Assembly: GCA_964497615.1 (NCBI GenBank)
Contig: CAZCEC010000018.1
Location: 1,176 to 65,175 of the forward strand
Source: an uncultured Anaerolineales bacterium
GTDB taxonomy: Bacteria > Chloroflexota > Anaerolineae > Anaerolineales > UBA6663
Direction of reading: 5' to 3'
Length of the DNA: 64,000 nucleotides
Numbering within the stretch: position 1 is the stretch's first letter; each line of letters begins with the position of its first letter. The position numbers were made by a program, and so were the translations under genes. This document shows, one piece after another, positions 5,785 to 38,985 of the stretch. The notes below the pieces were generated by a model. It searched no databases, was not told where the DNA came from, and was given only the letters and a program-made list of their open reading frames with translations.

Positions 5785-6102
5785 TTAGGGTTCCTTTTTC
5801 TGCAAAACTTGTAGGTGTTCTTCCAGGCGGTCGTAGCTGGCTTCCTTGAAGCGGCGGTAGCTGTCCAGCCAGGCGTCCAGCGCTCGAAACGGCTCGGCGC
5901 GGAGGCGGTAGATGCGCTGCTGGGCGGAGGGGTGCACATCCACCAACCCGGCTTCGCTGAGGATGCGCAAGTGCTTGGAGACTTGCGGCTGGCGGAGTTG
6001 GAGCGTCGCGGCAATCTCACCCACTGGGCGAGGGCCCTCGCGCAGGAGTTCGACGATCCGCAGACGGTTTGGCTGAGCCAGGGCAGTGAGGGTCGGAAGC
6101 AC
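5785..6102 (-). CDS. ArsR/SmtB-family metalloregulator-type transcriptional repressor
   Basis: LAQPNRLRIVELLREGPRPVGEIAATLQLRQPQVSKHLRILSEAGLV is a winged helix-turn-helix of ArsR type. I prefer the GTG start at 6102 because the promoter lies inside the longer ORF; the alternative is TTG at 6138. Confidence 0.8.
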   Translation of the reverse strand: MLPTLTALAQPNRLRIVELLREGPRPVGEIAATLQLRQPQVSKHLRILSEAGLVDVHPSAQQRIYRLRAEPFRALDAWLDSYRRFKEASYDRLEEHLQVLQKKEP

Positions 6103-6108
6103 GGATTG

Positions 6109-6146
6109 AATATACCACACGGAGAATATTCCTGTCAAGGAATATT
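6109..6146 (-). promoter_or_regulatory. arsR promoter with overlapping palindromic operator
   Basis: Reverse strand carries TTGACA (6138..6133), an 18-nt spacer, and TGgTATATT (6117..6109), followed by caatcc and GTG 6102. An inverted repeat AATATTCC (6125..6132) / GGAATATT (6139..6146) exactly brackets the -35 hexamer. Confidence 0.55.
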
Positions 6147-6209
6147 TCGCGGAAATTGGGTTAGGTCAGCGGAAGATCAAGTGTCGTCAGTCGTCCGGAC
6201 AGGCGGCGA

Positions 6210-6926
6210 CTATCTTAGCGGACTCTTGGCGGGCACTCCCGGCCGGCGGGGGTAGGCGGGCGGGGTGAGGGCGGTTTTGGAGTAGACGACGAGGTGGCGG
6301 GTCTCGACGATGCCGGGCAGTTCGATAGGGATGACCTGGGCGAGGGTGCCGCCGAGGCGGTGGACGGCGTGTTCGGCGGCGTGAGCCTCGGCGGGGGCGT
6401 CGTGGCCCTTTTGGGCGATGGCGAGGCCGCCGAGGCGGACAAGGGGCAAGAGATACTCGGCCAGGACGGGCATCTCGGCCACGGCGCGGGCGACGGCGAA
6501 GTCGTACTGTTCGCGATGGGCGGGGTCCTGACCGAGGTCTTCGGCGCGGGCCTTGATGACGGTGACGCCGGTGAGGCGAAGTTTTTCCACCAGGGCCTGG
6601 AGGAAGGTGATCTTCTTGCCGGTGGCCTCGACCAGGGTGAGGCGCAGGTCGGGGCAGAGGAGCTTGAGGGGCAGGCCGGGGATGCCGGCGCCGGTGCCCA
6701 CATCCACCAGGCGGGCGCGGCCCCAGCCGGAGGGCAAGGCCTTGAGCAGGGAGAGCGAGTCGAGGAAGTGCTTGATCTGGATGCCGTCATCGTCGGTGAT
6801 GGCAGTGAGGTTGAAGCGCTCGCTCCAGGCGCGCAGCTCGGCGGCGTAGGTCTCGAAGAGGGCCAGGTGGGCGGGGGCGAGGTCGAGGCCGAGGAGGGTG
6901 CGGGCGCCGAGGGTGAGGCGGTGCAT
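6210..6926 (-). CDS. rsmG: 16S rRNA (guanine527-N7)-methyltransferase
   Basis: 238 aa. FNLTAI, HFLDSL and VDVGTGAGIPGLPLKL (SAM-binding motif) are typical of RsmG/GidB. Confidence 0.9.
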   Translation of the reverse strand: MHRLTLGARTLLGLDLAPAHLALFETYAAELRAWSERFNLTAITDDDGIQIKHFLDSLSLLKALPSGWGRARLVDVGTGAGIPGLPLKLLCPDLRLTLVEATGKKITFLQALVEKLRLTGVTVIKARAEDLGQDPAHREQYDFAVARAVAEMPVLAEYLLPLVRLGGLAIAQKGHDAPAEAHAAEHAVHRLGGTLAQVIPIELPGIVETRHLVVYSKTALTPPAYPRRPGVPAKSPLR

Positions 6927-6932
6927 GGGGAC

Positions 6933-6938
6933 ATTATA
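6933..6938 (-). promoter_or_regulatory. TATAAT -10 positioned for leaderless transcription of rsmG
   Basis: Reverse strand reads ccgcTTATAATgtccccATG. Six nt separate the hexamer from the ATG (6926). No Shine-Dalgarno is present. Confidence 0.5.
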
Positions 6939-7140
6939 AGCGGGGAGGCAGGGGACTGAAGGGACTCAAGGGAAAGGAGGGAAAGGCGAAGGGTAAAAGG
7001 GGTGTGAGGGGCATAAGGGGCGGGGGGATGCTTGGCTGGGGGACTCAGGGGACTCGAGGGGAAGAGGGAGAAAGGGGGCTGAGGGCAAATGGGGCGAAAT
7101 GTGGAGGGCGTGAGGGGCGGGAGGGTGAGTTTGGGTAAGG
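6939..7140. repeat. G-rich, strand-asymmetric spacer with repeated GGGGACT(C/G)A(A/G)GGG-like motifs
   Basis: Plus strand is almost devoid of C runs and is full of G3-G7 runs. Motif copies: ggggactgaaggg, gggactcaaggg, gggggactcagggg, ggggactcgagggg. Confidence 0.85.
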
Positions 7141-10350: not shown

Positions 10351-13300
10351 CTAACGCATGATGATCGGCAGGAGGAGGCGGTAGATGTATTGGGCGACGG
10401 TGACGGCGGGGGCGGCGAGGTGGCGCACCTGGCCGTCGCCGGCAAGCTGGGCGGTGTTGTTGACGGTGCCGCTGAAAGCGATGGAGGCCTGGACGGTGAC
10501 GGTGTAGAGCACCTGCGCCAGCGGGCCGACCGAGCCGGTGCCGGTGAGAGTCGTGCTGCCGTTGAGGCCGGGGGCGTTGACGAGGGTGAGATTGAGGTCG
10601 AGCACATCGGTGAGGTGATAGGTGGCGGTTAGCTCGCCGCTGTTGGAGATGGTGAGGGTGTAGGTGAGCAGGTCGCCGCCGGTGATGGAGGTGGTGTTGA
10701 CCGTCTTTGAGGAGCCAGAGAGGTCTGCCGGGAAGGGCAGGTCGAGGCCGATGAGGACGGGGTCGTGGTCGGAGGCGCGGAACTGGTCGGGGGCGTAGAG
10801 GTCCTGCGGCTTGAACTCGATGTTGTAGTCAATGACGGAGGGCTCGTCGGCGTTGATGTGCCAGAAGGCGGCGCCGGTGATGTAGGGGTTGAGGCTGCCG
10901 GTGGACAGGCCGTGGTCCAGGTAGCCGGAGAAGCCGTCGAAGATGTAGGAGTAACGCCCGGCGGCGGGGATGTGCTGGGCGGCCTGGTCAATGAGGCCGC
11001 CAGCCACGAGGGTGTCGATCGGGTCTTCGGCGCCGTAGGAGTTCAGGTCGCCGATGACGATGACGTCCGGGTCGCCAGTCTCGGCCTGGAGATCGGCGAT
11101 GAAGTCCAGCAGGCCGGCGGCCTGCTCGACACGCTTGAGGTTCCAGCAGCCCTGCCCGTCACCCTGGTCGAGGTCGGGGCCGGAGCCTGGGCAACTGCCC
11201 TTGGACTTGAAGTGGTTGACGATGACGGTGAAGGTCTGACCGGTGAGGTTGTCCTGGAAGGTCTGCGCCAGGGGGGTGCGGTCGAACAGTTCGCCGGTGT
11301 AGGTGATGTGGTCGGTGACCTGGTAGTTGACGGCCAGGCCGACGGGGGTGACGGCGGCGGGCTGGTAGATGAGGGCGACCTTGATCTCGTCGGTGCCGGG
11401 GTCGGGCTCGGCCACGAAGGCGTAGGTGCCGGGGGCGGTCTCTTCGTTGAGGCGGTCCACCAAAGCCTGGATGGCGCTTTGGGCGCCGGTGCCGTCGTTC
11501 TCGATCTCCATCAACCCGACCACATCGGCGTCCAGGGCCACCAGGGCGGTGATGATCTTAGCCTCCTGGCGGATGAACTCGGTGAGGCTGTCGGCGCCGC
11601 GGGAGGTGGGGAAGCCGCCGCCCAGGCCGTCGCCGTTGAAGTAGTTGAGGACGTTGAAGCTGCCGACGCGCAGGTGGCCGCCCACGTCGCCGGGGAGAGC
11701 GGGGCGGTCGTTGACGCGGGTGAAGGTGACGGGCGCGGTGGGGTGCAGGCGGTAGAAGCGAATGTTGAAGTCGGAGTTGATCTGGCCATAGTCGAGCAGG
11801 CCGGTGAGGCCAGAGACCACGTCCCCGGCGCGGAGGGTGTTGTCGTCGCCGATGTAGGGGATGGGGTTGGGGTTCTGGTCGTTCAAGCCGTCATCCAGCA
11901 CCAGCATGCGCTTGGTGTTCTCTTCCAGGTCTTCACCCAGGTCGTTACCGTTGGTGGGGTTGTAGAGGCGGCCATCGGCGGCGAGGGTGACCTGGCCGTA
12001 GCGGCCCTGGAAGAAATTTTGCTGGGCGGTGAGGGTTTGCGGGATGGTGACGTACATGCCCTCGTAGCGCTCGTGATCGCCGAGAGTGTCCACCGGCAGG
12101 GTCAGCACAGTGGGGGCGAGGGCGTGGCCGGTGCTGCAGACGGTGACGGTGGTGACGGCGCCGAGCTCGGTGAGGGTGTTGAACTCGGTGATGGTGCCGG
12201 AGGCCACGATGAGGTCGCCCGCGCTGACGGCGAGGCTGTTGTTGAAGACGAACAGGCCGTCGGAGGTGGCGGGGTCGCCGTCGCCGCCGTCCTCGTCCTG
12301 GAGGAAGTAGCCGCTAAGGTTGACCGAGCCCTGATAGTCGCCGGTGACGATGCCGCGGGTGGTGACGGCCTGGCTGAGGTAGGGCGAGGTGGCGGTGGGG
12401 CCCTGGAGGGCGGAGATTTCGATGAAGCTGGCGTCGCACGGGTCGGGGGCGAGGACGGTGGTGGTGAACTCGGCCAGGTTGTTGCCGGGGTCGTCGCCGA
12501 TGGCGGTGGTGGTGAGGTGGACCGTGTTGGTGAAGACGTCGTTCTCGACCACGCTGACGGGCATGGTAAGGGCGAGGGTGAAGGAGAAGTGGGTGTTGCC
12601 GAGGACGGTGCCGGCCAGCCAGGTGCGGGTGGTGAGGTTGTCCACGACGCTCAGGCCACTGTCGTCGAAGGCGATGTTGTCCACGTCGAAGCCGGCGGGG
12701 AGGGTGTCGGTGAGGGTGACGGTGGTGGAAAGCTGGCCGTTGTTGCCGTAGCCGATGGTGTAGGTGATGCGCTTGCCCTGCTGGAGCGTGGCCGGGCCGG
12801 TCTTAGTGACGTAGGGGTCCGCGCCGAGGATGGTCACGCCGGCCTGGGCGAAGTTGTCGTCCAGGGTAGTTTCGGGGAGGCCGCTGGTGAGGACGGCGGT
12901 GTTGGTGAAGACACCGGCGGCGCTGGCAGTGCCGGTGAGCAGGATGGTGCCGCTGACGCCGACGCCGACGGATCCGAGGGTCCAGGTGACGAAGCCGTTG
13001 GCGTGCACGCCGCTGGCGGAGTCCTCGACGTAGGTAAGGCCGCCGGGGAGGCTGTCGACGAGGACCACGCCGGTCATGTCCACATCGCCGGTGTTGGAGT
13101 AGGACAGGGTGAAGGTGACGTCGCTTCCGGCGACGATGTCTGCGGCGGGGCCGGATTTGGCGAGGGCGAGGTTGGGAGCGCCAACGAGAGTGTAGGCCTC
13201 GGCCGTGTTATCGGCCGTAACGGTTTCGGTGGTGGCGGTGGAGACCGAGACGGTGTTGGTGAGCCAGGCGCCGGCCGCAATGGTGTTCGACAGGACTGCC

Positions 13301-14220
13301 TGGACCGACACGGTCACGCCGAGGCTGCCGACGGGCAGGGTGCCCAGGTCCCATACTAACTCCTGGCTGGTGGGCTGGGAAAACGAGACGGGGAGATCGG
13401 TGGTGTAGGTGACGAAGTCCACACCGGCCGGCAGGGTGTCCGTGAGAATGGTGCTGGTGGCGGACAGGGAGCCAGTGGCTGACAGCGTGAGGGTGTAGGT
13501 GATTGGCGCGGCAAGGCCGACCAGTTCCGGACCCGACTTGCTGATCTCCAACTCGGCCCCGAAGCTACAGGGGTCAATCGTGTGGGCGCCCAATTCCGAG
13601 AGAGTGTTGTTGGCGTATCCGTCCCACTCAGCGGCGAGATCGTCTCCAAAGTCGTTGGCCCCATTGGTGTCGCCGGAAATGATCGAACTCTTGCGGACCA
13701 AGGTGTTGTCGACGGTGCTGACCAGACCCGTTCCCCATTCGGTGCCAGGGTCAAAGCCGATCTGACCAAAGGTGTCAATGATCTGGCCGTTGTGGAAGAG
13801 CGCCAGAGCGTCGTCGCCGTTGAAGTTGATGACGGCGGACGAAATCTGGTCGGCCAGGACCGTAATGGTCACAGCCGCCGAACCATGGGCGAGGACGTAA
13901 ACGTCGTCCGGCGCAATGGTGCCCGACAAGACAACCGATTGGGAGACACTGGCACTGCCGTTCGTATAGAGCGCCAGGGAATAGGTGCCGGAGACAGAGA
14001 TCGGGTACTCAGTGCCGTTATAGAGTTCGATGGCCTTGTTGAAGGATGAACCTTCAATGTACTCAGAGATAAACAGGTTGGTTGGGCACGCGTTGACGGG
14101 CTCCAGGGCCGGGCGGGTTGGGGCGCTGGCTGACAAAGATGGCGTGGGCGCGGCGGCGGCGACGGGGGCGAAGACGGTGGACAGGACCAGCGTGAGGGCG
14201 AGGGCGAGGCGACGCAGCAT
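10351..14220 (-). CDS. ExeM/NucH-type extracellular nuclease: signal peptide, LTD-like domain, DUF11-type repeats, endonuclease/exonuclease/phosphatase domain, more DUF11-type repeats, C-terminal YRLLLPIIMR tail
   Basis: I prefer ATG 14220 (MLRRLALALTLVLSTVFAPVAAAAP signal peptide, AGGAG 6 nt upstream) over the ORF-track start at 14424. FISEYIEGSSFNKAIELYNGT marks the LTD domain, LRVGSFNVLNYFNG and SDHDPVLIGL the EEP domain. ITYTLTLS..LTDTLPAGVDFV-type repeats are present. Confidence 0.85.
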   Translation of the reverse strand: MLRRLALALTLVLSTVFAPVAAAAPTPSLSASAPTRPALEPVNACPTNLFISEYIEGSSFNKAIELYNGTEYPISVSGTYSLALYTNGSASVSQSVVLSGTIAPDDVYVLAHGSAAVTITVLADQISSAVINFNGDDALALFHNGQIIDTFGQIGFDPGTEWGTGLVSTVDNTLVRKSSIISGDTNGANDFGDDLAAEWDGYANNTLSELGAHTIDPCSFGAELEISKSGPELVGLAAPITYTLTLSATGSLSATSTILTDTLPAGVDFVTYTTDLPVSFSQPTSQELVWDLGTLPVGSLGVTVSVQAVLSNTIAAGAWLTNTVSVSTATTETVTADNTAEAYTLVGAPNLALAKSGPAADIVAGSDVTFTLSYSNTGDVDMTGVVLVDSLPGGLTYVEDSASGVHANGFVTWTLGSVGVGVSGTILLTGTASAAGVFTNTAVLTSGLPETTLDDNFAQAGVTILGADPYVTKTGPATLQQGKRITYTIGYGNNGQLSTTVTLTDTLPAGFDVDNIAFDDSGLSVVDNLTTRTWLAGTVLGNTHFSFTLALTMPVSVVENDVFTNTVHLTTTAIGDDPGNNLAEFTTTVLAPDPCDASFIEISALQGPTATSPYLSQAVTTRGIVTGDYQGSVNLSGYFLQDEDGGDGDPATSDGLFVFNNSLAVSAGDLIVASGTITEFNTLTELGAVTTVTVCSTGHALAPTVLTLPVDTLGDHERYEGMYVTIPQTLTAQQNFFQGRYGQVTLAADGRLYNPTNGNDLGEDLEENTKRMLVLDDGLNDQNPNPIPYIGDDNTLRAGDVVSGLTGLLDYGQINSDFNIRFYRLHPTAPVTFTRVNDRPALPGDVGGHLRVGSFNVLNYFNGDGLGGGFPTSRGADSLTEFIRQEAKIITALVALDADVVGLMEIENDGTGAQSAIQALVDRLNEETAPGTYAFVAEPDPGTDEIKVALIYQPAAVTPVGLAVNYQVTDHITYTGELFDRTPLAQTFQDNLTGQTFTVIVNHFKSKGSCPGSGPDLDQGDGQGCWNLKRVEQAAGLLDFIADLQAETGDPDVIVIGDLNSYGAEDPIDTLVAGGLIDQAAQHIPAAGRYSYIFDGFSGYLDHGLSTGSLNPYITGAAFWHINADEPSVIDYNIEFKPQDLYAPDQFRASDHDPVLIGLDLPFPADLSGSSKTVNTTSITGGDLLTYTLTISNSGELTATYHLTDVLDLNLTLVNAPGLNGSTTLTGTGSVGPLAQVLYTVTVQASIAFSGTVNNTAQLAGDGQVRHLAAPAVTVAQYIYRLLLPIIMR

Positions 14221-16636: not shown

Positions 16637-18892
16637 TTAAGCCAGGGCTTCGGCCAGGATGCGGTCCACGACGAGCTGGCGGAAGGCGGGCGAGAGGCTG
16701 GCGAAGTAGGCGCTGAAGCCGGTGACGCGGACAACCAAATCGGGATACAGGCTGGGGTCCTGGTGCGCGGCCAGGACCTTGGCTTTGTCCATGATGTTGA
16801 GGTTGATCTGGGTGCCGCCCAGGTCGAAGTGGGTGCGGATGAGGCTGGCGACGAGGTCCACGCCGCCCTGCTCGCGGGTGATCAGGGGGTCGAGCTCGAT
16901 TTGCATGGGGGCGGTGTTGCCGTAGCCGGGCTGGACGAGGGCGATGGCGGCGGCCAGGGCGGTGGGGGCGCCGTCGCGGCGGAAGCCAGGCTCCGGGTTG
17001 GAGCCGTGCGAGATGGGGGCGCCCGCGCGGCGGCCGTTGGGGGTGGCGCCCACGTCCTTGCCCATGGGGATGGTGTTGGCCCACGAGAAGAGGCCGGGGA
17101 TGAGTTGGTGGCCGGCGGGGGTGGTCGTGCCGGCGACGAGATCGGAGAACAGGCGGGCCACGCGCACGGCATAGTCGTCGGCCAGAGCGCCGCCGGAGCC
17201 GTAGCGGGGGGTGGAGTGCATGATCAGGCGGGCGCGCTCGCCGGCCACGCCCTCCCAATTGCGATCCAGGTGTCCTTTCAGATCAGCCCAGGTGAGGCGG
17301 CCCTCACGCTCGACGCGCTGTTCAATAGCGGCGAAGGAATCGGCGACGACGGCCAAGGCGGCGCCATCGAGGCCGAGATTGGTGAACTCGACGCCACCGT
17401 GCGAGGCATCCTCGCCGGTCTCAAGCGGGCCGTAGCAGAGCAAGTCCAGGACCAATTCGGGCAGGACCTGATGCATGTGGGCAACGTGCAGGTCCATGCA
17501 GCGGGCGGTGACGGCGATGGCGCGGCGCAGGTGGGTCTCGAAGCGGCGATAAAGCTCGGCCACGGTGGGCGCGATGGACGGATCGGCCAGCAGGTCTTCG
17601 AGGGCCACTTCGAAGATGCGCGCCAGGTTGATCTTGACGCAGTCGTTCATAGTGTATTCGCGGCCTGGGAGGGCCAGCCAGTGGCAGCCAGCGTAGATGC
17701 GCTGGCGGCCCAGCTCGATGGGGAAGCCGCTGCGGGCGAAGCCTTCGGCGGTGCGGTCCACGGCCAGGAACTTGGGGAAGCCGCATTTGTCCTCGAACTG
17801 AATCTCGACGCCGCGGCGCAGGAGGCCGGGGTCCACCTCGCGGCCGACGGCCACGCCGACGTTGGCGGGGATGCGCAGGCGGTGACCGGCCTCCAGGATG
17901 AGGTAGGACAGGCGGCTGGTGACGTCGTGACCATCCGCGGCAGGGCCGCCGAGCTGGATGTAGGCGGTGTCGCGGATGAGGAGGCAGGCCAGGTCGAAGA
18001 TGACGGTCTCGTCGTCGGTGAGGCCAAAGGCCAGGTCGTGGACGTAGTAGGGCTGGAGCAACACATCCAACCGGCCGAGGGAGCCACTGCCGTTGTACAT
18101 GCGGGCGATGGTCTGATACCACAGGATCCACTGGCAGGCTTCGCGGAAGGTGCGGGGCGGGTGGTCCACCAGCCAGTCGTTCATCGCCGCCATCTCGGCC
18201 AGATTGGCGCGGAGGTCCGGATGGGGCTCGGCGGCGGCCAGCACGCGGGCGGCGGTGGCGGTGCGGGCGATCCAATCCTGGATGCCGGTGACGATGGCTT
18301 CCAGGCCGGCGTAGAAATCGGCCTTGGCGGGGCCGTGCTCGGCCGCATAGCGGCGGACCTTTTTCAGGAGGCCGCCCCAGCCCAGGTCGAGGCCGAGGCG
18401 CAGGTCCTGGCAGAAGTGCTGGGCGGCGCCGATGCCGGGGAGGAGCTTGTAGCGGTCGATATCGGCCTGGAACTCGGCGAAGGAGAAGTCCGGGTTCCAA
18501 TGCGGCTTGCGGTAGGACATGAAGTTGGTCATATAGCCGCCGGCCAGGGAGGACATGGGGTCCACATAGGTGGGGTGGAGGCGCAGGAGGCGGCCAAAGT
18601 TTTCGCCGCAGGCGCGCGGGCCGAAGAAGCCGCCGCTGGGGTGGTTGCTGACGATCTCGAAGCCCTCCAACAGGCAGTCTTTGATGGGCATGCCGGAGGC
18701 GCTCATGGTCTGGACGAGGCGGCGGCGGTCGGGCGGGGGCAGGATGAGGGCGTGGTCGTCGTGGTCCATGGCGCCGATGACGCGCTGCTTTTCGGCGGTT
18801 TGTTCAAGCTTGGCGGCGCGCAGGGCATCGAGGCGCTGGGCGGCGCTGACCCTTTGGGCAGCGCTGGGGAGGGCGGGGTGGAGGGCTTCCAT
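16637..18892 (-). CDS. Glycyl-radical enzyme, PFL2/glycerol-dehydratase-like family, with an atypical Cys loop
   Basis: 751 aa. C-terminal glycyl-radical motif VVRVTGFSAYFASL (Gly codon 16720..16718). ATPNGRRAGAPISHGSNP region. Candidate thiyl loop RIYAGCHWLALPG (Cys 17686..17684, His 17683..17681, Trp 17680..17678). Confidence 0.9.
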   Translation of the reverse strand: MEALHPALPSAAQRVSAAQRLDALRAAKLEQTAEKQRVIGAMDHDDHALILPPPDRRRLVQTMSASGMPIKDCLLEGFEIVSNHPSGGFFGPRACGENFGRLLRLHPTYVDPMSSLAGGYMTNFMSYRKPHWNPDFSFAEFQADIDRYKLLPGIGAAQHFCQDLRLGLDLGWGGLLKKVRRYAAEHGPAKADFYAGLEAIVTGIQDWIARTATAARVLAAAEPHPDLRANLAEMAAMNDWLVDHPPRTFREACQWILWYQTIARMYNGSGSLGRLDVLLQPYYVHDLAFGLTDDETVIFDLACLLIRDTAYIQLGGPAADGHDVTSRLSYLILEAGHRLRIPANVGVAVGREVDPGLLRRGVEIQFEDKCGFPKFLAVDRTAEGFARSGFPIELGRQRIYAGCHWLALPGREYTMNDCVKINLARIFEVALEDLLADPSIAPTVAELYRRFETHLRRAIAVTARCMDLHVAHMHQVLPELVLDLLCYGPLETGEDASHGGVEFTNLGLDGAALAVVADSFAAIEQRVEREGRLTWADLKGHLDRNWEGVAGERARLIMHSTPRYGSGGALADDYAVRVARLFSDLVAGTTTPAGHQLIPGLFSWANTIPMGKDVGATPNGRRAGAPISHGSNPEPGFRRDGAPTALAAAIALVQPGYGNTAPMQIELDPLITREQGGVDLVASLIRTHFDLGGTQINLNIMDKAKVLAAHQDPSLYPDLVVRVTGFSAYFASLSPAFRQLVVDRILAEALA

Positions 18893-18907
18893 GGGAGACT
18901 CCTTGGG

Positions 18908-19834
18908 TTAGCGGGCGAGGGCGGGCACGCCCACGGCGCGGGCGGCCTGGACCAGTTCGGCCATGGCGGCTTTGCTGGGCGGGATGAGATGCGCGGCGCG
19001 GTCGTCGAGGCCGAGGCTGGTGTACTTATCGGCGGCGAGGCGGTGGAAGGGGAGCAGTTCCAAGGCCAGGGGCGGCGCACCGGCGGGGCGGGCGGCGCTT
19101 AGCTCGCGCACGAATTCGGCGATGGCCTGAATCTCGGGGACGGTGGCGTTGACGGTGGGCACAACCGGGGTGCGGAAGAGGATGGGCTTGCTGGTGGCGG
19201 CCAGGCGGCGGATGTTGGCGAGAATGCGATGATTGGCGACGCCGGTGGCGGCCTGATGCTGGCGGGAGTCCAGGTGTTTGATATCCACCATGAAGAGGTC
19301 CACGAAGGGCAGGATGGCGCGCAGGTTTTCCCAACGGGTTTGGGTGGTGGTCTCGACGGCGGTGTGCAGGCCAGCGGCGCGGCAGGCCTGGAGCAGGGCC
19401 AGGGTGAAGGCGGGCTGGAGCAAAGGTTCGCCGCCGGAGAGGGTGACGCCCCCGCCGGAGGACTCGTAGAAGGCCCGGTCGCGGAGGACCTCGGCCTTGA
19501 CCTGCTCGACCGTCATCTCGCGGCCGGAGAGCTGGAGAGCCTCGGCGAAGCACTCGGCCACGCAGGCGCCGCAGGTGACGCAGCGGTCGCGGTGGTAGAG
19601 GCGGCCATGGGGGCCAAGCTCCTGGGCGCCATGCTGGCAGGCGCGGACGCAGGCGCCGCAGGCGATGCAGCGGGAGGGGGTGAACTGGACTTCGAGACGG
19701 GGGCGCAGGCCTTCCGGGTTGTGACACCAGAAGCAGCGCAGGGGGCAGCCCTTGAGGAAGACGGTGGTGCGGATGCCGGGGCCGTCGTGGATGGAGAAGC
19801 GCTGGAGGTTGAAGACCAGCCCGCCGGGCATCAT
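18908..19834 (-). CDS. Glycyl-radical enzyme activating protein (radical SAM with two extra ferredoxin-type clusters)
   Basis: CPLRCFWCHNPE (CxxxCxxC), CIACGACVRACQHGA, CVTCGACVAECFAEA and GGVTLSGGEPL. Confidence 0.9.
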   Translation of the reverse strand: MMPGGLVFNLQRFSIHDGPGIRTTVFLKGCPLRCFWCHNPEGLRPRLEVQFTPSRCIACGACVRACQHGAQELGPHGRLYHRDRCVTCGACVAECFAEALQLSGREMTVEQVKAEVLRDRAFYESSGGGVTLSGGEPLLQPAFTLALLQACRAAGLHTAVETTTQTRWENLRAILPFVDLFMVDIKHLDSRQHQAATGVANHRILANIRRLAATSKPILFRTPVVPTVNATVPEIQAIAEFVRELSAARPAGAPPLALELLPFHRLAADKYTSLGLDDRAAHLIPPSKAAMAELVQAARAVGVPALAR

Positions 19835-27144: not shown

Positions 27145-29466
27145 ATGTCAGCTTCGCGCAATTTCACCTTCGCCGCCTTAGCCTTACGGCTAGCTGCGTC
27201 GCTCGCGCTCATCATTGCTTCCACTCCCATCATGGATATGGGCCTGACACCGCCACCCACGGCGTGGGCCGCCGGGCATGTCGTCAACCAGACGGCCGAC
27301 CCCGGCGACGGCGTGTGCGATGCGACCTGCACTCTTCGCGACGCCGTGCTAGCTGCGAATGCCAGCGCGGGACCAGACACCATTATGTTCGACACCAGCG
27401 GCACGGTCGTGCTGGGGTCGGCACTGCCTGCGATCACGGACACGCTGACGATTGACGGCAGCGGCCAAACGGTCGCCCTGGATGGCGCGAACGCCTATCG
27501 CGTGATATCGGCCACGGCTCCGCTGACCCTGACGGCGCTGACCGTGCAAAATGGCTACGCGGCGGGCAATGGCGGCGGGGCTTACTTTGGCAGCACTGGG
27601 ACGATCTCCGCGGTGACCTTCCTGAGTAATACGGTCAGCCTCAGCGATGACTATGGGGGCGGCGGCGCCTGGTTCGATGATCTGGCCCAGGTTTACCACT
27701 CGACCTTTGTGGGCAATATTTCCAGCGGCACCGGGGGCGGGGCGCATTTCGCGGCGGCGGCGTCGGTCTCGAGCACAGACTTCATCCACAATACCGCCGA
27801 AGGCACCTTTCTGGCTGGCGGCGGCGCATTGTTTTGGGGCTCGGCCCAACTGACGGCGGTCACTTTCGTCAGCAATACCACCGATGGGTACGGCGGCGGC
27901 GCGATGTTTGGCGAGGCTGAGTTGAGCGCTGTCACGTTCATTGACAACAGCGCGTTCAGCTGCGGAGGAGCATGCTTTGGTTCTCCGTCCGTTGTCAGTG
28001 ATGCGTCTTTCGTTGGCAACGTCTCGCTCACAGACGGCGGCGGCGCGATCTTTGGGGATACCGCCGTTGTCACTTCAACGACGTTCTTGAGTAACACAGC
28101 CGCCAGCGCGGCCGGCGGCGCACGGTTCGATGCGCGCGTGGTCATGACGGGGACGACCTTTATAGGTAACGCAGCGCTGTTCTCCTGGGGCGGCGCGGCG
28201 TCATTAAATGCCGACGATTCTGTAATCCAGTACAGCCTGTTCCAGGCGAATACTACCAGCGGTGTGGGCGGCGCCCTCTATCTACTCAGCGGGACCAATG
28301 TCAACTTGCTCGCCAACCAGTTCCTCGATAACCAGGCCGCATACGAGGGCGGCGCGCTGCAACTGTCGAGTAACACTCAAACCAACCTGGACAACAATAT
28401 ATTCGCGGGCAACCGCGTGCTCACCGACACCGGCGCGGCCGACATAGATATGTACCCGAACCTTCTGGGCCTCACCGGCCGGCACAACACCCTGGCTTCG
28501 GCTGTGCCAGGCCAGGGCCTGGCGCTGCAGGCCGGCCCCACCGCCACCGTTGCATTGACTAATACGATCTTCGACGGCTATGCGGTCGCCGTACAGGCCG
28601 GGGTGGCTACCACGATGACGCTCGATGGCGTCCTCTGGTCGAACGTCACTACGCCCACGCAGGGTGCTGGCATCACAGTGACCAACGACGTCACCGGCAG
28701 CTCGGCCTTTGCCGACCCGGGCGCGCACGACTATCACTTGACCCAGGCCAGCGATGCGCGCGATGCAGGGGTCGTCACCGGCCTAAGTGTGGACTACGAG
28801 GGCGACTCGCGCAGCTTTGGTCCCGCGCCTGACCTCGGCGCCGACGAGTACACCTTTCCGGCCGCGCCCGTAGCCGTGGATGACACCGCCAGCACCCCGG
28901 AGGATACGGCCGTGACGTTGAATGTGTTGGTGAATGACAGCGATTTGAACGGCGACCCGCTGAGCGTAGGCGCGGTGGGGGTTCCGACCAGCGGCATGGC
29001 GGTCGTCAGCGGCACGACGCAGATCGTCTATACACCGGCGCTCAACTTCAACGGCGCGGCGGTCTTTGCCTATGCCGCCAGCGATGGCGCACTGACGGCG
29101 ACGGCCAGCGTGACAGTCACGGTAACGGCAGTGAACGATGACCCAACGATGACCGCGCCGGGCGATCTGAGCATCACGGTCAACAGCAGCACCGGCGCAA
29201 TCCCCTTCACGGTGGGCGACGTAGACGAGGGCGATGTGCTCACAGTGACGGCAGAGTCGTCGAACACCGGACTGGTGCCCAACGGCGATATTCTGCTGGC
29301 CGGCAGCGGGATCAGCCGGACCGTGACGATTACGCCTACTGCTGGTCAGTGGGGGGCGGCCACAATCACGCTCACGGTGAGCGACGGGCAGGGCGGAATG
29401 GCGCAGGCGAGTTTTGGGTTGACCGTGATCGAGTACAGGCTGTACTTGCCGTTGGTGATGAGGTAA
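27145..29466 (+). CDS. Secreted CSLREA-type / PMP-repeat beta-helix protein with C-terminal cadherin/Ig-like repeats and a YRLYLPLVMR tail
   Basis: I prefer ATG 27145 (MSASRNFTFAALALRLAASLALIIAS). Contains DPGDGVCDATCTLRDAVLAANAS and GGGAYF/GGGAWF/GGGAHF/GGGALF repeats. PVAVDDTASTPEDTAVTLNVLVNDSDLNGDPLSV and VTAVNDDPT are Ig/cadherin-like modules. Confidence 0.8.
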   Translation: MSASRNFTFAALALRLAASLALIIASTPIMDMGLTPPPTAWAAGHVVNQTADPGDGVCDATCTLRDAVLAANASAGPDTIMFDTSGTVVLGSALPAITDTLTIDGSGQTVALDGANAYRVISATAPLTLTALTVQNGYAAGNGGGAYFGSTGTISAVTFLSNTVSLSDDYGGGGAWFDDLAQVYHSTFVGNISSGTGGGAHFAAAASVSSTDFIHNTAEGTFLAGGGALFWGSAQLTAVTFVSNTTDGYGGGAMFGEAELSAVTFIDNSAFSCGGACFGSPSVVSDASFVGNVSLTDGGGAIFGDTAVVTSTTFLSNTAASAAGGARFDARVVMTGTTFIGNAALFSWGGAASLNADDSVIQYSLFQANTTSGVGGALYLLSGTNVNLLANQFLDNQAAYEGGALQLSSNTQTNLDNNIFAGNRVLTDTGAADIDMYPNLLGLTGRHNTLASAVPGQGLALQAGPTATVALTNTIFDGYAVAVQAGVATTMTLDGVLWSNVTTPTQGAGITVTNDVTGSSAFADPGAHDYHLTQASDARDAGVVTGLSVDYEGDSRSFGPAPDLGADEYTFPAAPVAVDDTASTPEDTAVTLNVLVNDSDLNGDPLSVGAVGVPTSGMAVVSGTTQIVYTPALNFNGAAVFAYAASDGALTATASVTVTVTAVNDDPTMTAPGDLSITVNSSTGAIPFTVGDVDEGDVLTVTAESSNTGLVPNGDILLAGSGISRTVTITPTAGQWGAATITLTVSDGQGGMAQASFGLTVIEYRLYLPLVMR

Positions 29467-35679: not shown

Positions 35680-36909
35680 TTAAGGGTCGCGGCGCAGCCA
35701 GAGGGACACACTCTTTGGCTCAAGCGTATCCTGGACCACTCGCATCAATTGCGTGTTAAGTTGGTCGAGGTCGGCATCGGCGTCGGCGCGCAGGGCCGCG
35801 CCATAGGCCTCCAGGGTGCGGGCCGCATCGTAGCGGCGGCGGTTGAAGCGCCGGTCGATACCGCGCTGGACGCGGGTGCGCAGGGGGCCGGCGGCGGCGG
35901 CGATGACCAGGGTTGAGAACACCGTGACCAGCGGCGACTGCGCCTGGCCGGTGAGGGCCCGCAAGCCCCCTTGCAGCACAATCACACTCCCCAAATACAG
36001 AATCGCCAGCGCCCCGGTGAGCGTGGTGTACAGCAGGGTGCGGCGGATGAGCAGGTCAATGTCCCACAGCCGATAGCGCAGGATTGAGACGGCGAGACTG
36101 AGCGGCAGCAAGGCCACGGCCAGCCGCAGGGCATGGTCCGTGACGAACTGCGCCAGGGCCGCCAGCGGCGTGGCCGCCAGCAGGGTGACCACCAAGAAGG
36201 CATTAATCAGCAGGATCACCATCGCCGACAGCCCGACCACGACCCACTTGATCTGCTGGCGCTCCACGGGCGTAGACAGCCGCCGGTAGCGATAGGCCAG
36301 CGCACCCACGCCGATGGGCAGTAAGATCAGCCAGGTCAGTATCCAGGCGGTCCAGACGGCTCCCCCGTCCGTCTGAAGATTCCACACGGTCAGCCCGGCC
36401 TCGACCGCAAAGGCTAATCCAAAGAACCAGCCCAGCCAGCCCCTGGCCGGCCGGCCGCTGGGAAACAGCAGGATGAACAGCGCCATCGCGTTCAGGCTCA
36501 GGAGGCTGAGCGCCTCGCTCGTCTGGGCGAAGAGGCGGCGCCAGGGCCAGGGGTAGTAGAGCCAGTCGCCGTCGTAGCCGCTGAGGGCGAGCGGCAGCGT
36601 GACCAGCAGCGCGCCGGCCAGCCAGGCGGCCCGGTCATCGGCCTTGCGCCAGCCAATGAACAGACCGGTGAACGCGCACAGTAGGGCGACGGCGTAGTCG
36701 CGGCCCAGAATGTAGCGGGCATACGCCGCCCGGCTGAGATACGACGCCACGGCGGGATAACTCTCCTGAAACACCCATTCGGTCGAAATGGTCAGCCGGC
36801 GGATGGGCGTCTGAAGCGCCAGCAGGGCGAGGCCTGTCACGGCGATCAGCAGGAATGTCGCTCGGGCCAGGGCCAGGCGGCGGGGCGCCGTCCACCAGGC
36901 CAGGGTCAT
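35680..36909 (-). CDS. Polytopic membrane protein resembling the N-terminal sensor/membrane module of histidine kinases, lacking any kinase domain
   Basis: ATG 36909 overlaps the upstream stop (ATGA). It has at least 8 hydrophobic segments. The ILRYRLWDIDLLIRRTLLYT and RVQRGIDRRFNRRRYDAARTLEAY motifs normally precede HisKA/HATPase domains, but the protein ends at ...VSLWLRRDP. Confidence 0.65.
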   Translation of the reverse strand: MTLAWWTAPRRLALARATFLLIAVTGLALLALQTPIRRLTISTEWVFQESYPAVASYLSRAAYARYILGRDYAVALLCAFTGLFIGWRKADDRAAWLAGALLVTLPLALSGYDGDWLYYPWPWRRLFAQTSEALSLLSLNAMALFILLFPSGRPARGWLGWFFGLAFAVEAGLTVWNLQTDGGAVWTAWILTWLILLPIGVGALAYRYRRLSTPVERQQIKWVVVGLSAMVILLINAFLVVTLLAATPLAALAQFVTDHALRLAVALLPLSLAVSILRYRLWDIDLLIRRTLLYTTLTGALAILYLGSVIVLQGGLRALTGQAQSPLVTVFSTLVIAAAAGPLRTRVQRGIDRRFNRRRYDAARTLEAYGAALRADADADLDQLNTQLMRVVQDTLEPKSVSLWLRRDP

Positions 36910-38939
36910 GCCGGGGCGGCCTCCGGCGCGGGGCGGCGGGCAGAGAGGAGGGTGAGCGCGCCGAGCGCCATCCAGCCCAGGCCCAAGCAAATCACCATCA
37001 GCCAAAGCGGCCAATCGGTGTTGGGCGCGAGCCAGAAACTGGCGACCAGCGGAAGCGGCCCGCCGAGCGGCCCGATGATGAGCGGCAGGAAGTTGAGGTG
37101 CGGCAACAGGCGCGTCTTCAGGTTGGCCAACCCAAAGAGCATCAGGCCCACGGTGTGAACCAGGAGCCCGAGGATCAGCAGATACCAGCCCGCCTCCCAT
37201 GCGAACCACTCGGAGACGAAGGCGATGCCAATTGCGACAATGCCCAGCACGGCGCCAGCCAACCCAACCCCGCCCAGCCGCCCGAGGCGGCCCAGAGTAC
37301 TCAGCCCGACCGCGCCCACCCCGATAAGAGTGGTGGCAAATACGAGCAGGAAAGACCACTGGTCCTGCCCGTCGCCGCTGGAGAGTGACCACACGGCCAG
37401 CCACGAAAGCCCGCCGAGGACCCCGGCCAGCCCGCCCAGACGGGCGAGGAACTGGCGCGACACGCCCGGCCAGAAACGCCAGCCGACCGTGCCCAGCGGC
37501 AAACCGACGACGGCCAGCAAGGCCAGCCAGCGGACGGGCACGGGCGGGCGATAGTCGGGCAGGGGGGCCAGGGCGCGGGCAGTGTAATTGGGGCACAGGC
37601 TGGCAGCGCTGGGGGCGCAGTGCTCGAATCGCCCGCCCACCATCGTGGCGAGCACGCTGAGGCGGCGCAATTCTTCCGCGCCCACGGCCAGGGGGTTGCC
37701 GGAGACGACGATGAGGTCCGCGTACTTGCCGGGGGCGAGGCTGCCGACTTCGGCTTCGCGGAAGAGGGCATAGGCGGACTGGAGGGTCATGATCGAGAGT
37801 GCCTCGGAGACGGTGAGGGTATCGTCGAGCAGCCAGGGCTGGGGGGCGCAGGTGCGGTAGCCGCTGTACACGTCGAGGCGGGTGACAAAGCCGTACAGGT
37901 GGATGAAGGGGTTAATGGAATGGAAGGGATAGTCGGAGTGCCAGGCGATGTTGAGGCCAGGGTTGCGGTCGCGCAAATCGCGCCAGGGCCACTCCCAGTC
38001 GCCGTAGGCCTCCGGCAGCGGCGGGCCAAAGGGGACGCAGCTCAGGTAGTTGCCCGGCAGCACCGGCACCAGGTTCAACTCACCAAAGCGCGCAACCAAC
38101 TCCGGCGGCAGCACGCTGACGTGCTCGAGGCGGTGGCGGTAGGTGTTGGGCTGACCGTTAAGGGCGGCGGCCACGGCGGTTTGCGCCTGCGCCACGGCGC
38201 GGTCGCCGATGGCGTGGATGGCGGCCTGATGGCCGGCGGCCTGGACCTCGGCCACCATCGCGTTGAGTTCGTCTTGCGTGTGCCACAGGTCGCCGCCGTG
38301 CTGATCGGCATGGTCAAAGCTGAGGGCCACGTTGCCACACGAGCCGCCGTCGGTGAAGATTTTGACGCCGCCGAGGCGGAGCATCTCGCCGGGGACGCGG
38401 GTGGGCGGATAGGCTTTCCACCAATCGCCCTGGTCGCTGCCGCAGGGGTCGGTGTGGACGAGATACAAGCTGGTGTGCAGGCGCAAGTAACCGCCGTCGT
38501 TGAAGGCCTGGACCTCCTGCAGGAAGACCTGGTCCACATACAAATCGCCAATCGTGGTGATGCCGCTGCGGAGAGCTAGGCCCTGGGCCTGGTCGAGGCT
38601 CATGCCCTGGGAGCGGGCGTCGTTGAGGACGTGGGTGTGAGCGTCCACGAAGCCGGGCATCAGGGTGCGGCCGGCGAGATCAATGACTAGGCTGTCGGGC
38701 GCGGCCAGGGCCAGCACGCTGGCGTCATCGCCGACGGCTTCGATCTTGTCGCCGCGCAGGGCGATGGCCTGGGCCACCGGCTGAGACGACTCCATGGTCA
38801 GCACAATGCCATTGTGGAAGATGACGGACTGGCCGGGATCAACCGGCTCGACGGGAGTGCCGAGGAGGGCGGGGGCGCAGGCGGCGAGGAGGCTGGCGGC
38901 GGCCAGGAGGATGAGCAGGCTGGCAGGGCGGGTCGGCAT
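36906..38939 (-). CDS. Lipoprotein-signal amidohydrolase (Amidohydro_3/YtcJ-like) fused to a C-terminal multi-TM domain
   Basis: I prefer ATG 38939 (MPTRPASLLILLAAASLLAAC lipobox, GGAG 9 nt upstream). LMPGFVDAHTHVL is the metal-binding motif. The last ~230 aa contain at least 6 hydrophobic helices. Confidence 0.7.
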   Translation of the reverse strand: MPTRPASLLILLAAASLLAACAPALLGTPVEPVDPGQSVIFHNGIVLTMESSQPVAQAIALRGDKIEAVGDDASVLALAAPDSLVIDLAGRTLMPGFVDAHTHVLNDARSQGMSLDQAQGLALRSGITTIGDLYVDQVFLQEVQAFNDGGYLRLHTSLYLVHTDPCGSDQGDWWKAYPPTRVPGEMLRLGGVKIFTDGGSCGNVALSFDHADQHGGDLWHTQDELNAMVAEVQAAGHQAAIHAIGDRAVAQAQTAVAAALNGQPNTYRHRLEHVSVLPPELVARFGELNLVPVLPGNYLSCVPFGPPLPEAYGDWEWPWRDLRDRNPGLNIAWHSDYPFHSINPFIHLYGFVTRLDVYSGYRTCAPQPWLLDDTLTVSEALSIMTLQSAYALFREAEVGSLAPGKYADLIVVSGNPLAVGAEELRRLSVLATMVGGRFEHCAPSAASLCPNYTARALAPLPDYRPPVPVRWLALLAVVGLPLGTVGWRFWPGVSRQFLARLGGLAGVLGGLSWLAVWSLSSGDGQDQWSFLLVFATTLIGVGAVGLSTLGRLGRLGGVGLAGAVLGIVAIGIAFVSEWFAWEAGWYLLILGLLVHTVGLMLFGLANLKTRLLPHLNFLPLIIGPLGGPLPLVASFWLAPNTDWPLWLMVICLGLGWMALGALTLLSARRPAPEAAPA

Positions 38940-38985
38940 GAAAGGACTCCGGCGAAGGCGGCGCAAGTGATGGATTGTGTTTGAC

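Follow-up and report, generated by a model that had tools for sequence, protein, structure and literature searches.

Two unrelated proteins with predicted export signals very probably carry the YLP-box, an ultrashort C-terminal motif with a likely role in sorting or retention

Introduction

Two genes on opposite strands of the 64-kb window (the whole stretch of DNA that was analysed) encode large proteins, here called A and B, that end in a similar ten-residue tail. This raises the question of whether the tail is a sorting tag of exported proteins, and by what means such a short peptide could act. With no membrane-spanning segment, such a tag would be half as long as the shortest sorting domain described at prokaryotic C-termini. 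In sampled matches, many surface enzymes and adhesin-like proteins of a single bacterial group carry it. This group has no BAM or LPS genes, and there is debate over whether its envelope is monoderm or diderm-like. A partner of the tag would explain how nucleases, proteases, glycosidases and adhesins are held at the surface, and it could reveal components of the outer layer. In this study, we determined the identity, shape, carriers and distribution of the tail, and we compared it with known sorting systems.

Results

Two exported proteins with a common tail

Gene A (773 aa; 27145..29466, plus strand) encodes a signal-like segment, a CSLREA N-terminal motif, a parallel beta-helix with a choice-of-anchor Q end, two Big_9/cadherin-like domains and the tail. 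Its product is identical to P0001, the database protein called on the source contig. A start at the first ATG (27052) was rejected, as its product is not on record, and the called start is 27145. Gene B (1289 aa; 10351..14220, minus strand) encodes a signal peptide, a lamin-tail domain, four DUF11 repeats, an ExeM/NucH nuclease domain (E = 1.5e-177 against NF033681, ExeM_NucH_DNase), a DUF7927-like domain and the tail, and its product is identical to the database protein P0121. The probable signal peptides of A (MSASRNFTFAALALRLAASLALIIASTPIMDMGLTPPPTAWA; 27145..27270, plus strand) and B (MLRRLALALTLVLSTVFAPVAAA; 14152..14220, minus strand) were called from the translation with a hydrophobicity heuristic, not a dedicated predictor. 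Both genes end close to GC-rich intergenic DNA. The names found among homologues of A and B were Caldilineaceae, Ardenticatenales and Anaerolineae.

Tail A is YRLYLPLVMR (29434..29463, plus strand; 29434..29466 with its TAA stop), and the protein end reads EYRLYLPLVMR. Tail B is YRLLLPIIMR (10354..10383, minus strand; 10351..10383 with its TAG stop), and the protein end reads IYRLLLPIIMR. In both genes the stop codon comes directly after the final Arg. A six-frame scan of the window with the pattern [YF]RL.LP[LIVM][LIVM]MR returned the two tails as the sole matches, terminal or internal. The tails are identical at 7/10 residues and at 20/33 nucleotides. Nucleotide identity was 9/10 at codon position 2, compared with 4/10 at position 1 and 5/10 at position 3, and both Arg residues come from different codon families (AGG versus CGC/CGT). 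When the flanks of the two tails were compared, no DNA repeat in common was found. The best BLASTP alignment between A and B had E = 0.36 and was anchored on the tail itself, and the Pfam domains of the two proteins differ. These results bear out the preliminary description in its placement of both tails, in its claim that the codons differ and the tail is kept at the protein level, and in its view that the rest of A and B is unrelated. In the AlphaFold2 model, the final Ig-like domain is confident and tail A is a coil past its last strand. In-frame translation beyond the stops of both genes gave no hydrophobic segment.

Identity of the tail

The tail had been taken as undescribed at the outset. 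This did not stand, since it is already covered by the NCBIfam models NF050076.1 (sort_motif_YLP) and NF053834.1 (ultrashort_CTERM), each of which bears the name 'YLP-box putative sorting motif', and tail A scores above both cut-offs. Scanned alone, it reached 19.3-20 bits against NF050076 (cut-off 15) and 15.2-15.8 bits against NF053834 (cut-off 10), and it aligned to all 11 and all 10 positions of the two models, respectively. With full-length protein A, the YLP-box score fell to 13.4 bits, just under the cut-off. Tail A thus shares with the curated YLP-box both the motif and the extreme C-terminal position. Tail B gave no match in NCBIfam up to E = 10. It differs from the curated motif by Leu in place of the usual Tyr/Phe ahead of Leu-Pro and is reported by neither model. 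The same LLP variant is also present in two other proteins (P0076 and P0038), and we treat tail B as a divergent LLP variant of the YLP-box that the curated models miss.

On a position matrix of our own, derived from 112 independent tails, tail A scored 35.6 bits and tail B 24.3 bits, and the maximum was 3.8 bits among 812 other open-frame ends (296 from the window and 516 from non-Chloroflexota loci). Internal 11-mers scored as high as tail B or higher in only 3 of 356,031 cases. The match of tails A and B is far past chance. Among 78 independently found tagged proteins, NF050076 and NF053834 were the commonest families matched (29/78 each). The tail is also not limited to these two proteins, a limitation that would have counted against the reading in the preliminary description: many unrelated proteins of other genomes carry it, and the YRLYLPLVMR end of L090 is identical to tail A. 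The decapeptide YRLYLPLVMR is the consensus of a phylum-wide motif and not a peculiarity of this genome, and tails A and B are almost certainly instances of the YLP-box. The NCBIfam entries give a name only, qualified as putative. A literature search for the YLP-box, its model accessions or an experiment on the motif returned no paper, and with it no mechanism or cognate enzyme. What the window adds is two carriers of an already curated motif, one of them an LLP variant that the models miss.

Shape of the motif

Haft (10.1101/2023.06.07.544157) has given eight criteria for small C-terminal sorting signals, and the YLP-box was compared with each of them. The first concerns terminal position. 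The strict motif lay within the last 16 residues in 40 homologues of A and was found internally only twice in 105,798 residues. Under the third criterion, which concerns the motif itself, we aligned 84 tails of homologues of A on Pro, the residue fixed by the search expression, with alternatives allowed at the other scored positions. Leu was present at position -1 in 75/84 tails, Tyr, Phe or Trp at -2 in 73/84, and Arg or Lys at +4 in 73/84; an Arg/Lys also lay four residues ahead of Pro in 45/84. The consensus may be written as aromatic/basic-[RK]-[LIV]-[YF]-L-P-L-[VI]-x-[RK], about 10-11 residues, and as read from these sequences it mostly stands last in the protein, or else has up to about four residues behind it (0-4 from the C-terminus). 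Pro was exactly 4 residues from the end in 46/84 tails and 4-8 residues from it in 82/84, and 38/84 tails had 1-7 or more extra residues beyond the basic residue. All three types of stop codon are in use across carriers, and several tails sit behind Pro/Thr-rich linkers.

The fourth criterion is a hydrophobic region long enough for a transmembrane helix, and here the YLP-box departs from Haft's signals. There is no transmembrane segment, and the median length of the uncharged stretch around Pro is 7 residues (exactly 7 in 55/115 tails), so that the tail is too short for a tripartite signal of motif, transmembrane helix and basic end, as had been supposed. Where the fifth criterion has 2-5 basic residues at the end, one Arg/Lys followed Pro in 92/115 tails and two in 21/115.

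Carriers and exchange of tails among homologues

The sixth criterion is an N-terminal signal peptide in most carriers. A signal-like hydrophobic segment was present in 40/50 complete tagged reading frames, as well as in A and B, as judged with a hydrophobicity heuristic in place of a trained predictor. Carriers should also be otherwise unrelated, according to the seventh criterion. Besides A and B, the 78 tagged proteins from other genomes matched 86 Pfam families, with no family in more than 8 of them, and most carriers were singletons in an all-against-all BLAST. From their sequences, the tagged proteins of filamentous Chloroflexota (Anaerolineae in the broad sense, and Chloroflexia) are predicted to be Sec/Tat-exported, and most of them to be large surface or hydrolytic proteins with several domains.

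The last criterion concerns homologues without the signal or with another. The tail was present in 84/120 homologues of A and in about 10/120 ExeM/NucH homologues. Two of the latter (P0207 and P0188) have a T9SS type A sorting domain at the C-terminus, and others have transmembrane-plus-basic tails. Among CSLREA homologues, some end in a transmembrane-plus-RRRR tail, some in a PEP-like or a YLP tail, and some have none. In beta-helix proteins the tag begins about 5 residues past the domain end D[IL]GAYE, and in 90 of them we found 72 LP tails, 10 ends at the domain with nothing beyond, and 4 PEP-CTERM-like tails. The PEP-like tails were called by inspection only, and full-length scans with the PEP-CTERM models gave no match to them. 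These results demonstrate that the tag is a modular, terminal, protein-level element on signal-peptide proteins of unrelated families, where it is swapped with other anchors among homologues. They agree with the earlier reading of the tail as a modular tag at the C-terminus of exported proteins, placed in the slot where homologues from other lineages bear other sorting signals.

Lineage distribution and copies per genome

Genomes were scanned with the pattern LYLPL[VIM]xR-stop as codon-restricted DNA. The scan is biased to CTN, TAC and CGN codons, and its counts are those of a sample, not totals. Among the 120 matches listed, 86 were Chloroflexota-labelled, and 71 of these 86 closed an open frame of 100 aa or more. 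This related-genome scan, as suggested in the preliminary description, thus placed the tail family in many Chloroflexota records, mostly at gene ends. The other 34 of the 120 matches listed came from other taxa, with 7 at gene ends, all 7 in metagenome-assembled genomes. The same scan of viral contigs as a control gave 9 matches, 0 at a gene end. A looser search found 21 further tails among open frames in Chloroflexota loci, compared with 0/291 in non-Chloroflexota loci. Among the matches listed, the tag is almost only found in records labelled Anaerolineae or Chloroflexia.

Multiple copies per genome are the second of Haft's criteria. Two tagged genes lie in this 64-kb window, and among the matches listed, ten assemblies, including metagenome-assembled genomes, had 2-3 matches to one narrow pattern. 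Up to three tagged genes were found within 8 kb in four loci (L016, L066, L102 and L111). Taken over all eight criteria, the YLP-box agrees outright with five and in part with two, and it fails on the transmembrane segment.

Search for a partner enzyme

Gene neighbours were compared by an all-against-all BLAST in which the window and the carrier loci together supplied 2,663 open frames. Except for ubiquitous two-component regulators, no gene family recurred beside the 78 tagged genes (8-kb tiles), no CPBP gene was found near the carriers, and no sorting-enzyme candidate was found in the window. The uncharacterised membrane proteins of the window yielded no candidate either; their sole match (16.5 bits, to the PrsK transmembrane region) was regarded as non-specific. 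Membrane and uncharacterised frames between clustered carriers were also rejected as the enzyme; they comprised only a carotenoid-synthesis-like membrane protein, an ISL3 transposase, and SnoaL-like and cohesin-like proteins.

Discussion

The YLP-box shares many features with LPXTG/sortase, PEP-CTERM/exosortase, GlyGly-CTERM/rhombosortase and MYXO-CTERM/myxosortase signals. Like these, it is C-terminal, occurs in many copies per genome, and has an invariant Pro and a basic end; its carriers likewise have signal peptides, are mutually unrelated, and have homologues with other tails or none. In contrast to these classical tripartite signals, it has no hydrophobic segment of transmembrane length, usually one or two basic residues, and no known cognate enzyme. 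It is also not a member of the LPXTG/sortase class, because Leu-Pro is followed by Leu, Val/Ile, any residue and Arg/Lys, with no Thr-Gly and no transmembrane segment. The CAAX box, which is processed by Rce1/CPBP-type proteases, is similarly ultrashort and set by its distance from the C-terminus. The Cys of the CAAX box is three residues from the end, compared with four for the Pro of the YLP-box. However, the YLP-box has no Cys or lipidation site and tolerates 1-4 extra residues, and its carriers are extracytoplasmic. Several prokaryotic C-terminal signals are processed by enzymes of the CPBP family, to which the myxosortases are related, and the shortest signal described in that work is CGP-CTERM, with 20 residues compared with about 10 in the YLP-box (10.1101/2023.06.07.544157).

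A sorting or retention role of the YLP-box is likely. As ways in which it may act, the preliminary description had suggested a C-terminal recognition strand, a protease or transpeptidase site at LP, and attachment to the cell envelope or a sheath. We propose that the YLP-box is an envelope sorting or retention tag read by a dedicated protein, and our preferred version includes cleavage and attachment; for this proposal as a whole, we consider the chances to be about even. Envelope retention, reading by a dedicated protein and cleavage are all three what we infer. The carrier would be exported first, and its free, unstructured tail would then be recognised, in the form of a linear peptide, by a dedicated protein of the envelope. 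A protein binding site is favoured over generic lipid partitioning because the aromatic-Leu-Pro core is near-invariant and because basic residues stand on either side of an uncharged stretch of seven residues. In the preferred version, the partner would be a membrane-associated processing enzyme that cuts at or near Leu-Pro and leaves the protein attached to some part of the wall or outer layer, or passes it on to such a part. Its role would be like that of the sortase, exosortase or myxosortase systems, with a signal that has no transmembrane helix. The step of cleavage with attachment is a pure conjecture that we hold to be somewhat doubtful. Since the tail has no transmembrane segment, a median of 7 uncharged residues and usually one basic residue after Pro, it is hard to picture how a membrane enzyme would grip it, and since the tag often starts about 5 residues past a folded domain, there is little room for an intramembrane active site.

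A bolder version is that the YLP-box serves a novel type of sorting pathway whose signal has no transmembrane helix. Its reader, an enzyme or receptor family, would be unrelated to sortases, exosortases, rhombosortases and CPBP proteases, and the pathway would fix exported proteins to the unusual outer layer that the cells of filamentous Chloroflexota have in common. An outer layer, together with a protein layer, has been described in filamentous Chloroflexota, which have no BAM or LPS genes (preprint 10.1101/2025.08.19.671072). We regard this version as tentative and on balance improbable; if true, it would give a molecular handle on the composition of the filamentous Chloroflexota outer layer.

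The rival explanation that survives best, though we think it unlikely, is a tail that docks or anchors the protein and is never cleaved. It would stay on the mature protein and hold it at the envelope non-covalently, either through a receptor protein or a polymer that belongs to the outer or proteinaceous layer, or as a wedge of seven uncharged residues at the lipid interface with the flanking Arg/Lys on head groups. The shortness of the tail, its lack of a transmembrane helix, its closeness to the folded domain and its modelling as a free coil all fit this explanation. So do the basic residues that flank the hydrophobic core and the aromatic residue, as in interfacial peptides, and the outer and protein layers noted above. 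However, docking by lipid partitioning alone would not need a near-invariant Leu-Pro and fixed spacing, and about 7 residues on their own make a weak anchor for carriers as large as these (500-1700 aa).

It is also quite improbable that the tail is a second-step export signal, which would direct proteins over the outer layer of the filament after Sec/Tat, in a role like that of the T9SS C-terminal domain. The carrier lineages have a multilayered envelope, and the T9SS type A sorting domain (TIGR04183) occupies the same C-terminal slot on Bacteroidota ExeM/NucH homologues, also as a lineage-specific tag on Sec-exported surface proteins. In contrast to the YLP-box, a ten-residue peptide modelled as unstructured, this domain is folded, has about 72 residues and is read by an outer-membrane translocon. 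Known signals of this type are folded domains of about 70-100 residues, and no such transport system is known in Chloroflexota. The Pro/Thr-rich stalks ahead of some tails also suggest that the C-terminus is proximal to the cell, which points to anchoring and not to release.

Even less probable is a tag for a C-terminal (tail-specific, PDZ-type) protease, which would serve maturation or turnover rather than localisation. PDZ-type proteases read hydrophobic C-termini, and the motif is strictly terminal, both of which count for this explanation. However, the C-terminal residue is charged (Arg or Lys), the extra residues on 38/84 tails leave the free carboxylate in no fixed register, and the swapping with genuine anchors among homologues points to localisation.

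An artefact or coincidence is refuted for practical purposes: it has in its favour only the shortness of the motif and the GC-rich intergenic DNA, and it fails as overlap with a DNA repeat or terminator (differing codons, no repeat in the flanks), as a chance match (control ends at 3.8 bits or less against 24-36 bits for tails A and B), as recoding or stop-codon read-through into a transmembrane segment (all three stops used, no hydrophobic segment beyond them) and as an intramolecular capping strand of the final domain (a coil outside the fold in AlphaFold2). What precedes the tail also varies, from domains of unrelated types to Pro/Thr linkers.

A third exported CSLREA/beta-helix protein is encoded at the edge of the window (1..2553, minus strand; CSLREA_Nterm E = 1.5e-9). 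Its N-terminal 851 aa lie inside, and its C-terminus lies outside, in agreement with the earlier remark that this beta-helix protein extends past the window edge. The best homology-search match was 33% identical, and the C-terminus was not recovered by it. YLP-type tails were present on 39/119 homologues of this protein.

Two unrelated genes in the window end in the same type of tail

Translation of both strands placed the two tails exactly where the preliminary description had located them. The CSLREA/beta-helix gene (27145..29466, plus strand; 773 aa, called on the source contig as P0001) ends in YRLYLPLVMR followed by TAA, with the tail at 29434..29463. The ExeM/NucH nuclease gene (10351..14220, minus strand; 1289 aa, called on the source contig as P0121) ends in YRLLLPIIMR followed by TAG, with the tail at 10354..10383. 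A six-frame scan found no further [YF]RL.LP[LIVM][LIVM]MR, terminal or internal, in the window. Domain scans detected a CSLREA motif at the N-terminus of the first protein, along with a parallel beta-helix that closes in a choice-of-anchor Q end and a pair of Big_9/cadherin-like domains. In the nuclease they found one lamin-tail domain, DUF11 repeated four times and the ExeM/NucH nuclease domain (E = 1.5e-177). No significant similarity between them was detected by BLASTP, the best alignment (E = 0.36) being anchored on the tail, and the remainder of the two proteins is unrelated, as had been claimed. The DNA of the two tails agrees at 20 of 33 bases, with identity concentrated at codon position 2 (9/10). 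Both arginines use differing codon families (AGG versus CGC/CGT), and no DNA repeat common to the flanks was found. These results indicate that the tail is conserved at the protein level.

The two CSLREA/beta-helix genes of the window, 27145..29466 and 1..2553 (minus strand), have a third-position GC of 0.77 and 0.80 compared with 0.87-0.94 in their neighbours, which could reflect composition or more recent acquisition. The nearest CSLREA proteins (P0001-P0020; window 27145..27270) also have a common N-terminal signal/anchor region, roughly ...RL(V/A)xSLAL..A..P..D.RLA, whose conservation exceeds what is usual for signal peptides.

The tail is the catalogued YLP-box

The tail was previously proposed to be an undescribed tag. 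This was wrong, since the beta-helix tail matched two curated NCBIfam models from end to end. Both NF050076.1 (sort_motif_YLP) and NF053834.1 (ultrashort_CTERM) carry the description "YLP-box putative sorting motif-containing protein". In the beta-helix frame read from its first ATG (27052), NF050076.1 matched residues 794-804 with 13.4 bits (cut-off 15). With the tail alone, the match covered all 11 positions of this model at 19.3-20.0 bits; for NF053834.1 it covered all 10 at 15.2-15.8 bits (cut-off 10). Full-text searches found no papers mentioning the YLP-box or its model accessions. The nuclease tail, with Leu in place of the motif's Tyr or Phe, matched neither model. A position matrix was constructed from 112 tails of other proteins, and it scored the beta-helix tail at 35.6 bits and the nuclease tail at 24.3 bits. 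The highest of 812 control open-frame ends reached 3.8 bits, and only 3 of 356,031 internal 11-mers scored at or above the nuclease tail. The shared tail is far beyond chance and, on its matrix score, the nuclease tail belongs to the same class as a divergent member. The window adds two YLP-box carriers, one of them a variant missed by the curated models.

Anatomy of the motif

The motif lay within the last 14 residues in 84 of the best 120 homologues of the beta-helix protein. Relative to the Pro, these 84 tails had Arg or Lys at -4 (45), Leu, Ile or Val at -3 (66), Tyr, Phe or Trp at -2 (73), Leu at -1 (75), Leu at +1 (52), Val or Ile at +2 (65), a variable residue at +3, and Arg or Lys at +4 (73). 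The protein ended directly at +4 in 46 tails, and most others had 1-4 extra residues. The stretch around the Pro lacking charged or strongly polar residues had a median length of 7, and it was followed by usually one, sometimes two, basic residues. Of these homologues, 40 had strict [YF]LP[LIV][LIVM].[RK] within their last 16 residues, with just two instances in the other 105,798 residues, a terminal preference that the earlier proposal required.

In beta-helix proteins whose domain ends in D[IL]GAYE, the tail begins about 5 residues later, giving an appendix of 12-19 residues in all. Among 90 such proteins, 72 had a Leu-Pro tail, 10 stopped at the domain end and 4 had a PEP-CTERM-like tail. 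Some other carriers have Pro/Thr-rich linkers immediately before the tail. The window's beta-helix protein was modelled over its final 208 residues with AlphaFold2 (mean pLDDT 93.5), which gave two confident Ig-like domains; the last strand ended ...GLTVIE and the tail was coil (last block pLDDT 73). The tail is therefore predicted to be an appended free peptide outside any fold.

Carriers are mostly exported proteins of Chloroflexota

We scanned one genome per species with the pattern CTNTACCTNCCNCTNRTNNNNCGNTRR (LYLPL[VIM]xR-stop with common codons). A match counted as a gene end if it closed an open frame of 100 aa or more that had a true stop. Chloroflexota-labelled records gave at least 86 matches, at least 71 of them at a gene end, and other taxa gave at least 34, at least 7 of them at a gene end. 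In viral contigs, scanned with the same pattern as the control, none of 9 matches was at a gene end. By label, the Chloroflexota matches listed were 52 Anaerolineae-type (including Caldilineae, Ardenticatenia, Thermoflexales and the cultured Anaerolinea thermolimosa and Bellilinea caldifistulae), 26 Chloroflexia-type (including Roseiflexus, Herpetosiphonaceae, Oscillochloris and Viridilinea) and 8 unclassified. The labels Dehalococcoidia, Ktedonobacteria and Thermomicrobia were not seen among the matches listed. Weighed against the number of genomes that exist for these three classes, this suggests that, by record labels among these matches, the YLP-box is restricted to the filamentous classes. 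All 7 non-Chloroflexota gene-end matches listed came from metagenome-assembled genomes. Two of these 7 lie on loci labelled 'Candidatus Gracilibacteria bacterium SM1_231_1' (L034 and L064, JAAUTF01; 58-61% GC), which encode YLP-box proteins of 901 aa and 733 aa and are probably misbinned Chloroflexota contigs.

Among the matches listed, 40 of 50 complete carrier frames had an N-terminal signal-like hydrophobic segment, as judged by a hydrophobicity heuristic. The 78 carriers among these matches contained 86 different Pfam families, none in more than eight carriers, including subtilases, C25 peptidases, GH44, LRR, DUF11 and CarboxypepD_reg; the NCBIfam families matched most often were the two YLP models. 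Carrier genes were numerous and often clustered. At least 10 assemblies had two or three matches to this narrow pattern, some 8-kb DNA tiles around carriers held three carriers each, and 21 additional loose tails were found in Chloroflexota tiles compared with 0 in 291 control open frames.

The YLP-box is exchanged with other anchors

About 10 of the best 120 ExeM/NucH homologues had YLP-type tails, including ones named Caldilineaceae and Anaerolineaceae. Bacteroidota members carried a terminal T9SS type A sorting domain (TIGR04183; P0207 and P0188), and other homologues had a final basic cluster preceded by some 20 residues of hydrophobic segment. CSLREA/beta-helix homologues ended in a YLP tail, a transmembrane-plus-RRRR tail, a PEP-like tail or a bare domain. 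Both families carry other tails elsewhere, as the preliminary description had stated. Cyanobacterial ExeM/NucH homologues with HemolysinCabind repeats (P0157, P0160, P0164, P0170, P0173 and others) had in common a conserved extreme C-terminus of a different kind, ...T(A/S)xDF(V/I)(T/A)(V/L/A)-COOH. It may correspond to the acidic-plus-hydrophobic terminus that type 1 secretion substrates typically have.

Anchor exchange among homologues is listed by Haft as typical of small C-terminal sorting signals (10.1101/2023.06.07.544157). The YLP-box conforms to criteria 1, 3, 6, 7 and 8 of Haft's eight, and to criterion 2 as far as the fragments at hand allow. It is borderline for criterion 5 (basic cluster) and lacks the transmembrane-length hydrophobic segment of criterion 4, its uncharged stretch having a median of 7, which bears out the claim that it is too short for a motif/transmembrane/basic tripartite signal. 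Its length is about half that of the shortest signal in that paper (20 residues; 10.1101/2023.06.07.544157). By these comparisons, the YLP-box behaves like a sorting signal outside the tripartite class. The proposed sorting-type tag is thereby supported on comparative grounds.

Proposed mechanism

By the matches listed, the YLP-box is almost confined to one lineage, whose multilayered envelope consists of the cytoplasmic membrane, an outer layer that is shared, and a layer of protein, and which has no BAM or LPS genes (preprint 10.1101/2025.08.19.671072). The tag is a free, strictly terminal peptide with a near-invariant aromatic-Leu-Pro core and seven uncharged residues between basic residues, found on exported proteins and exchangeable with known anchors. 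From this we infer that the tag sorts proteins to the envelope or retains them there, and that a dedicated protein reads it. The invariant Leu-Pro would be unnecessary for generic partitioning into lipid. That 1-4 extra residues are tolerated speaks against the free carboxylate being what is recognised, and the need for a near-terminal position points to a peptide that has to fit into a pocket or is removed as a short fragment. In the version that we tentatively prefer, a membrane-associated enzyme would cut at or near Leu-Pro, and the cut protein would then be attached or handed over to a wall or outer-layer component. It is doubtful that the tail instead serves as an uncleaved docking peptide, and a second-step export signal is improbable. 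As for the cleavage that we prefer, CPBP-type proteases process very short C-terminal motifs in eukaryotes. They also process several prokaryotic sorting signals (10.1101/2023.06.07.544157), and as candidates for processing this tag they are worth testing, as a lead rather than a result.

Genes near the carriers

The preliminary description proposed a search for a co-occurring enzyme, and none emerged near the carriers. When all open frames of the window and of the 78 carrier tiles were compared with one another, only two-component regulators recurred as neighbours, and open frames between clustered carriers gave no informative candidate. No look-alike of a sortase, exosortase, rhomboid or CPBP protease was found in the 64-kb window. 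Along with genes of ordinary metabolism, the window encodes a class A penicillin-binding protein (by the nuclease gene), a lipoprotein of the peptide-binding type, an amidohydrolase and, in a further open frame, an uncharacterised polytopic membrane protein. In one carrier locus, L016, an ISL3-family transposase (5825-7120) adjoins three YLP-box genes, and a carotenoid-synthesis-like membrane protein sits between two of its YLP-box genes.

The penicillin-binding protein gene (7211..9739, plus strand; transglycosylase and transpeptidase, with an Ig-like domain at the C-terminus) is convergent with the nuclease gene, facing its 3' end. At 35680..38966 (minus strand), the amidohydrolase frame (36906..38966), with a lipoprotein-like N-terminus, overlaps the membrane frame (35680..37596) in another frame; a frameshift or a fusion may lie behind this, or the two may simply be adjacent genes. 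For the membrane frame, about 9 transmembrane segments are predicted; it matches no Pfam family, and its sole match is a weak one (16.5 bits) to the PrsK transmembrane region. Unrelated to the tail, a glycyl-radical enzyme (PFL-like and Gly_radical domains) lies at 16637..19834 (minus strand) next to a probable activating enzyme.
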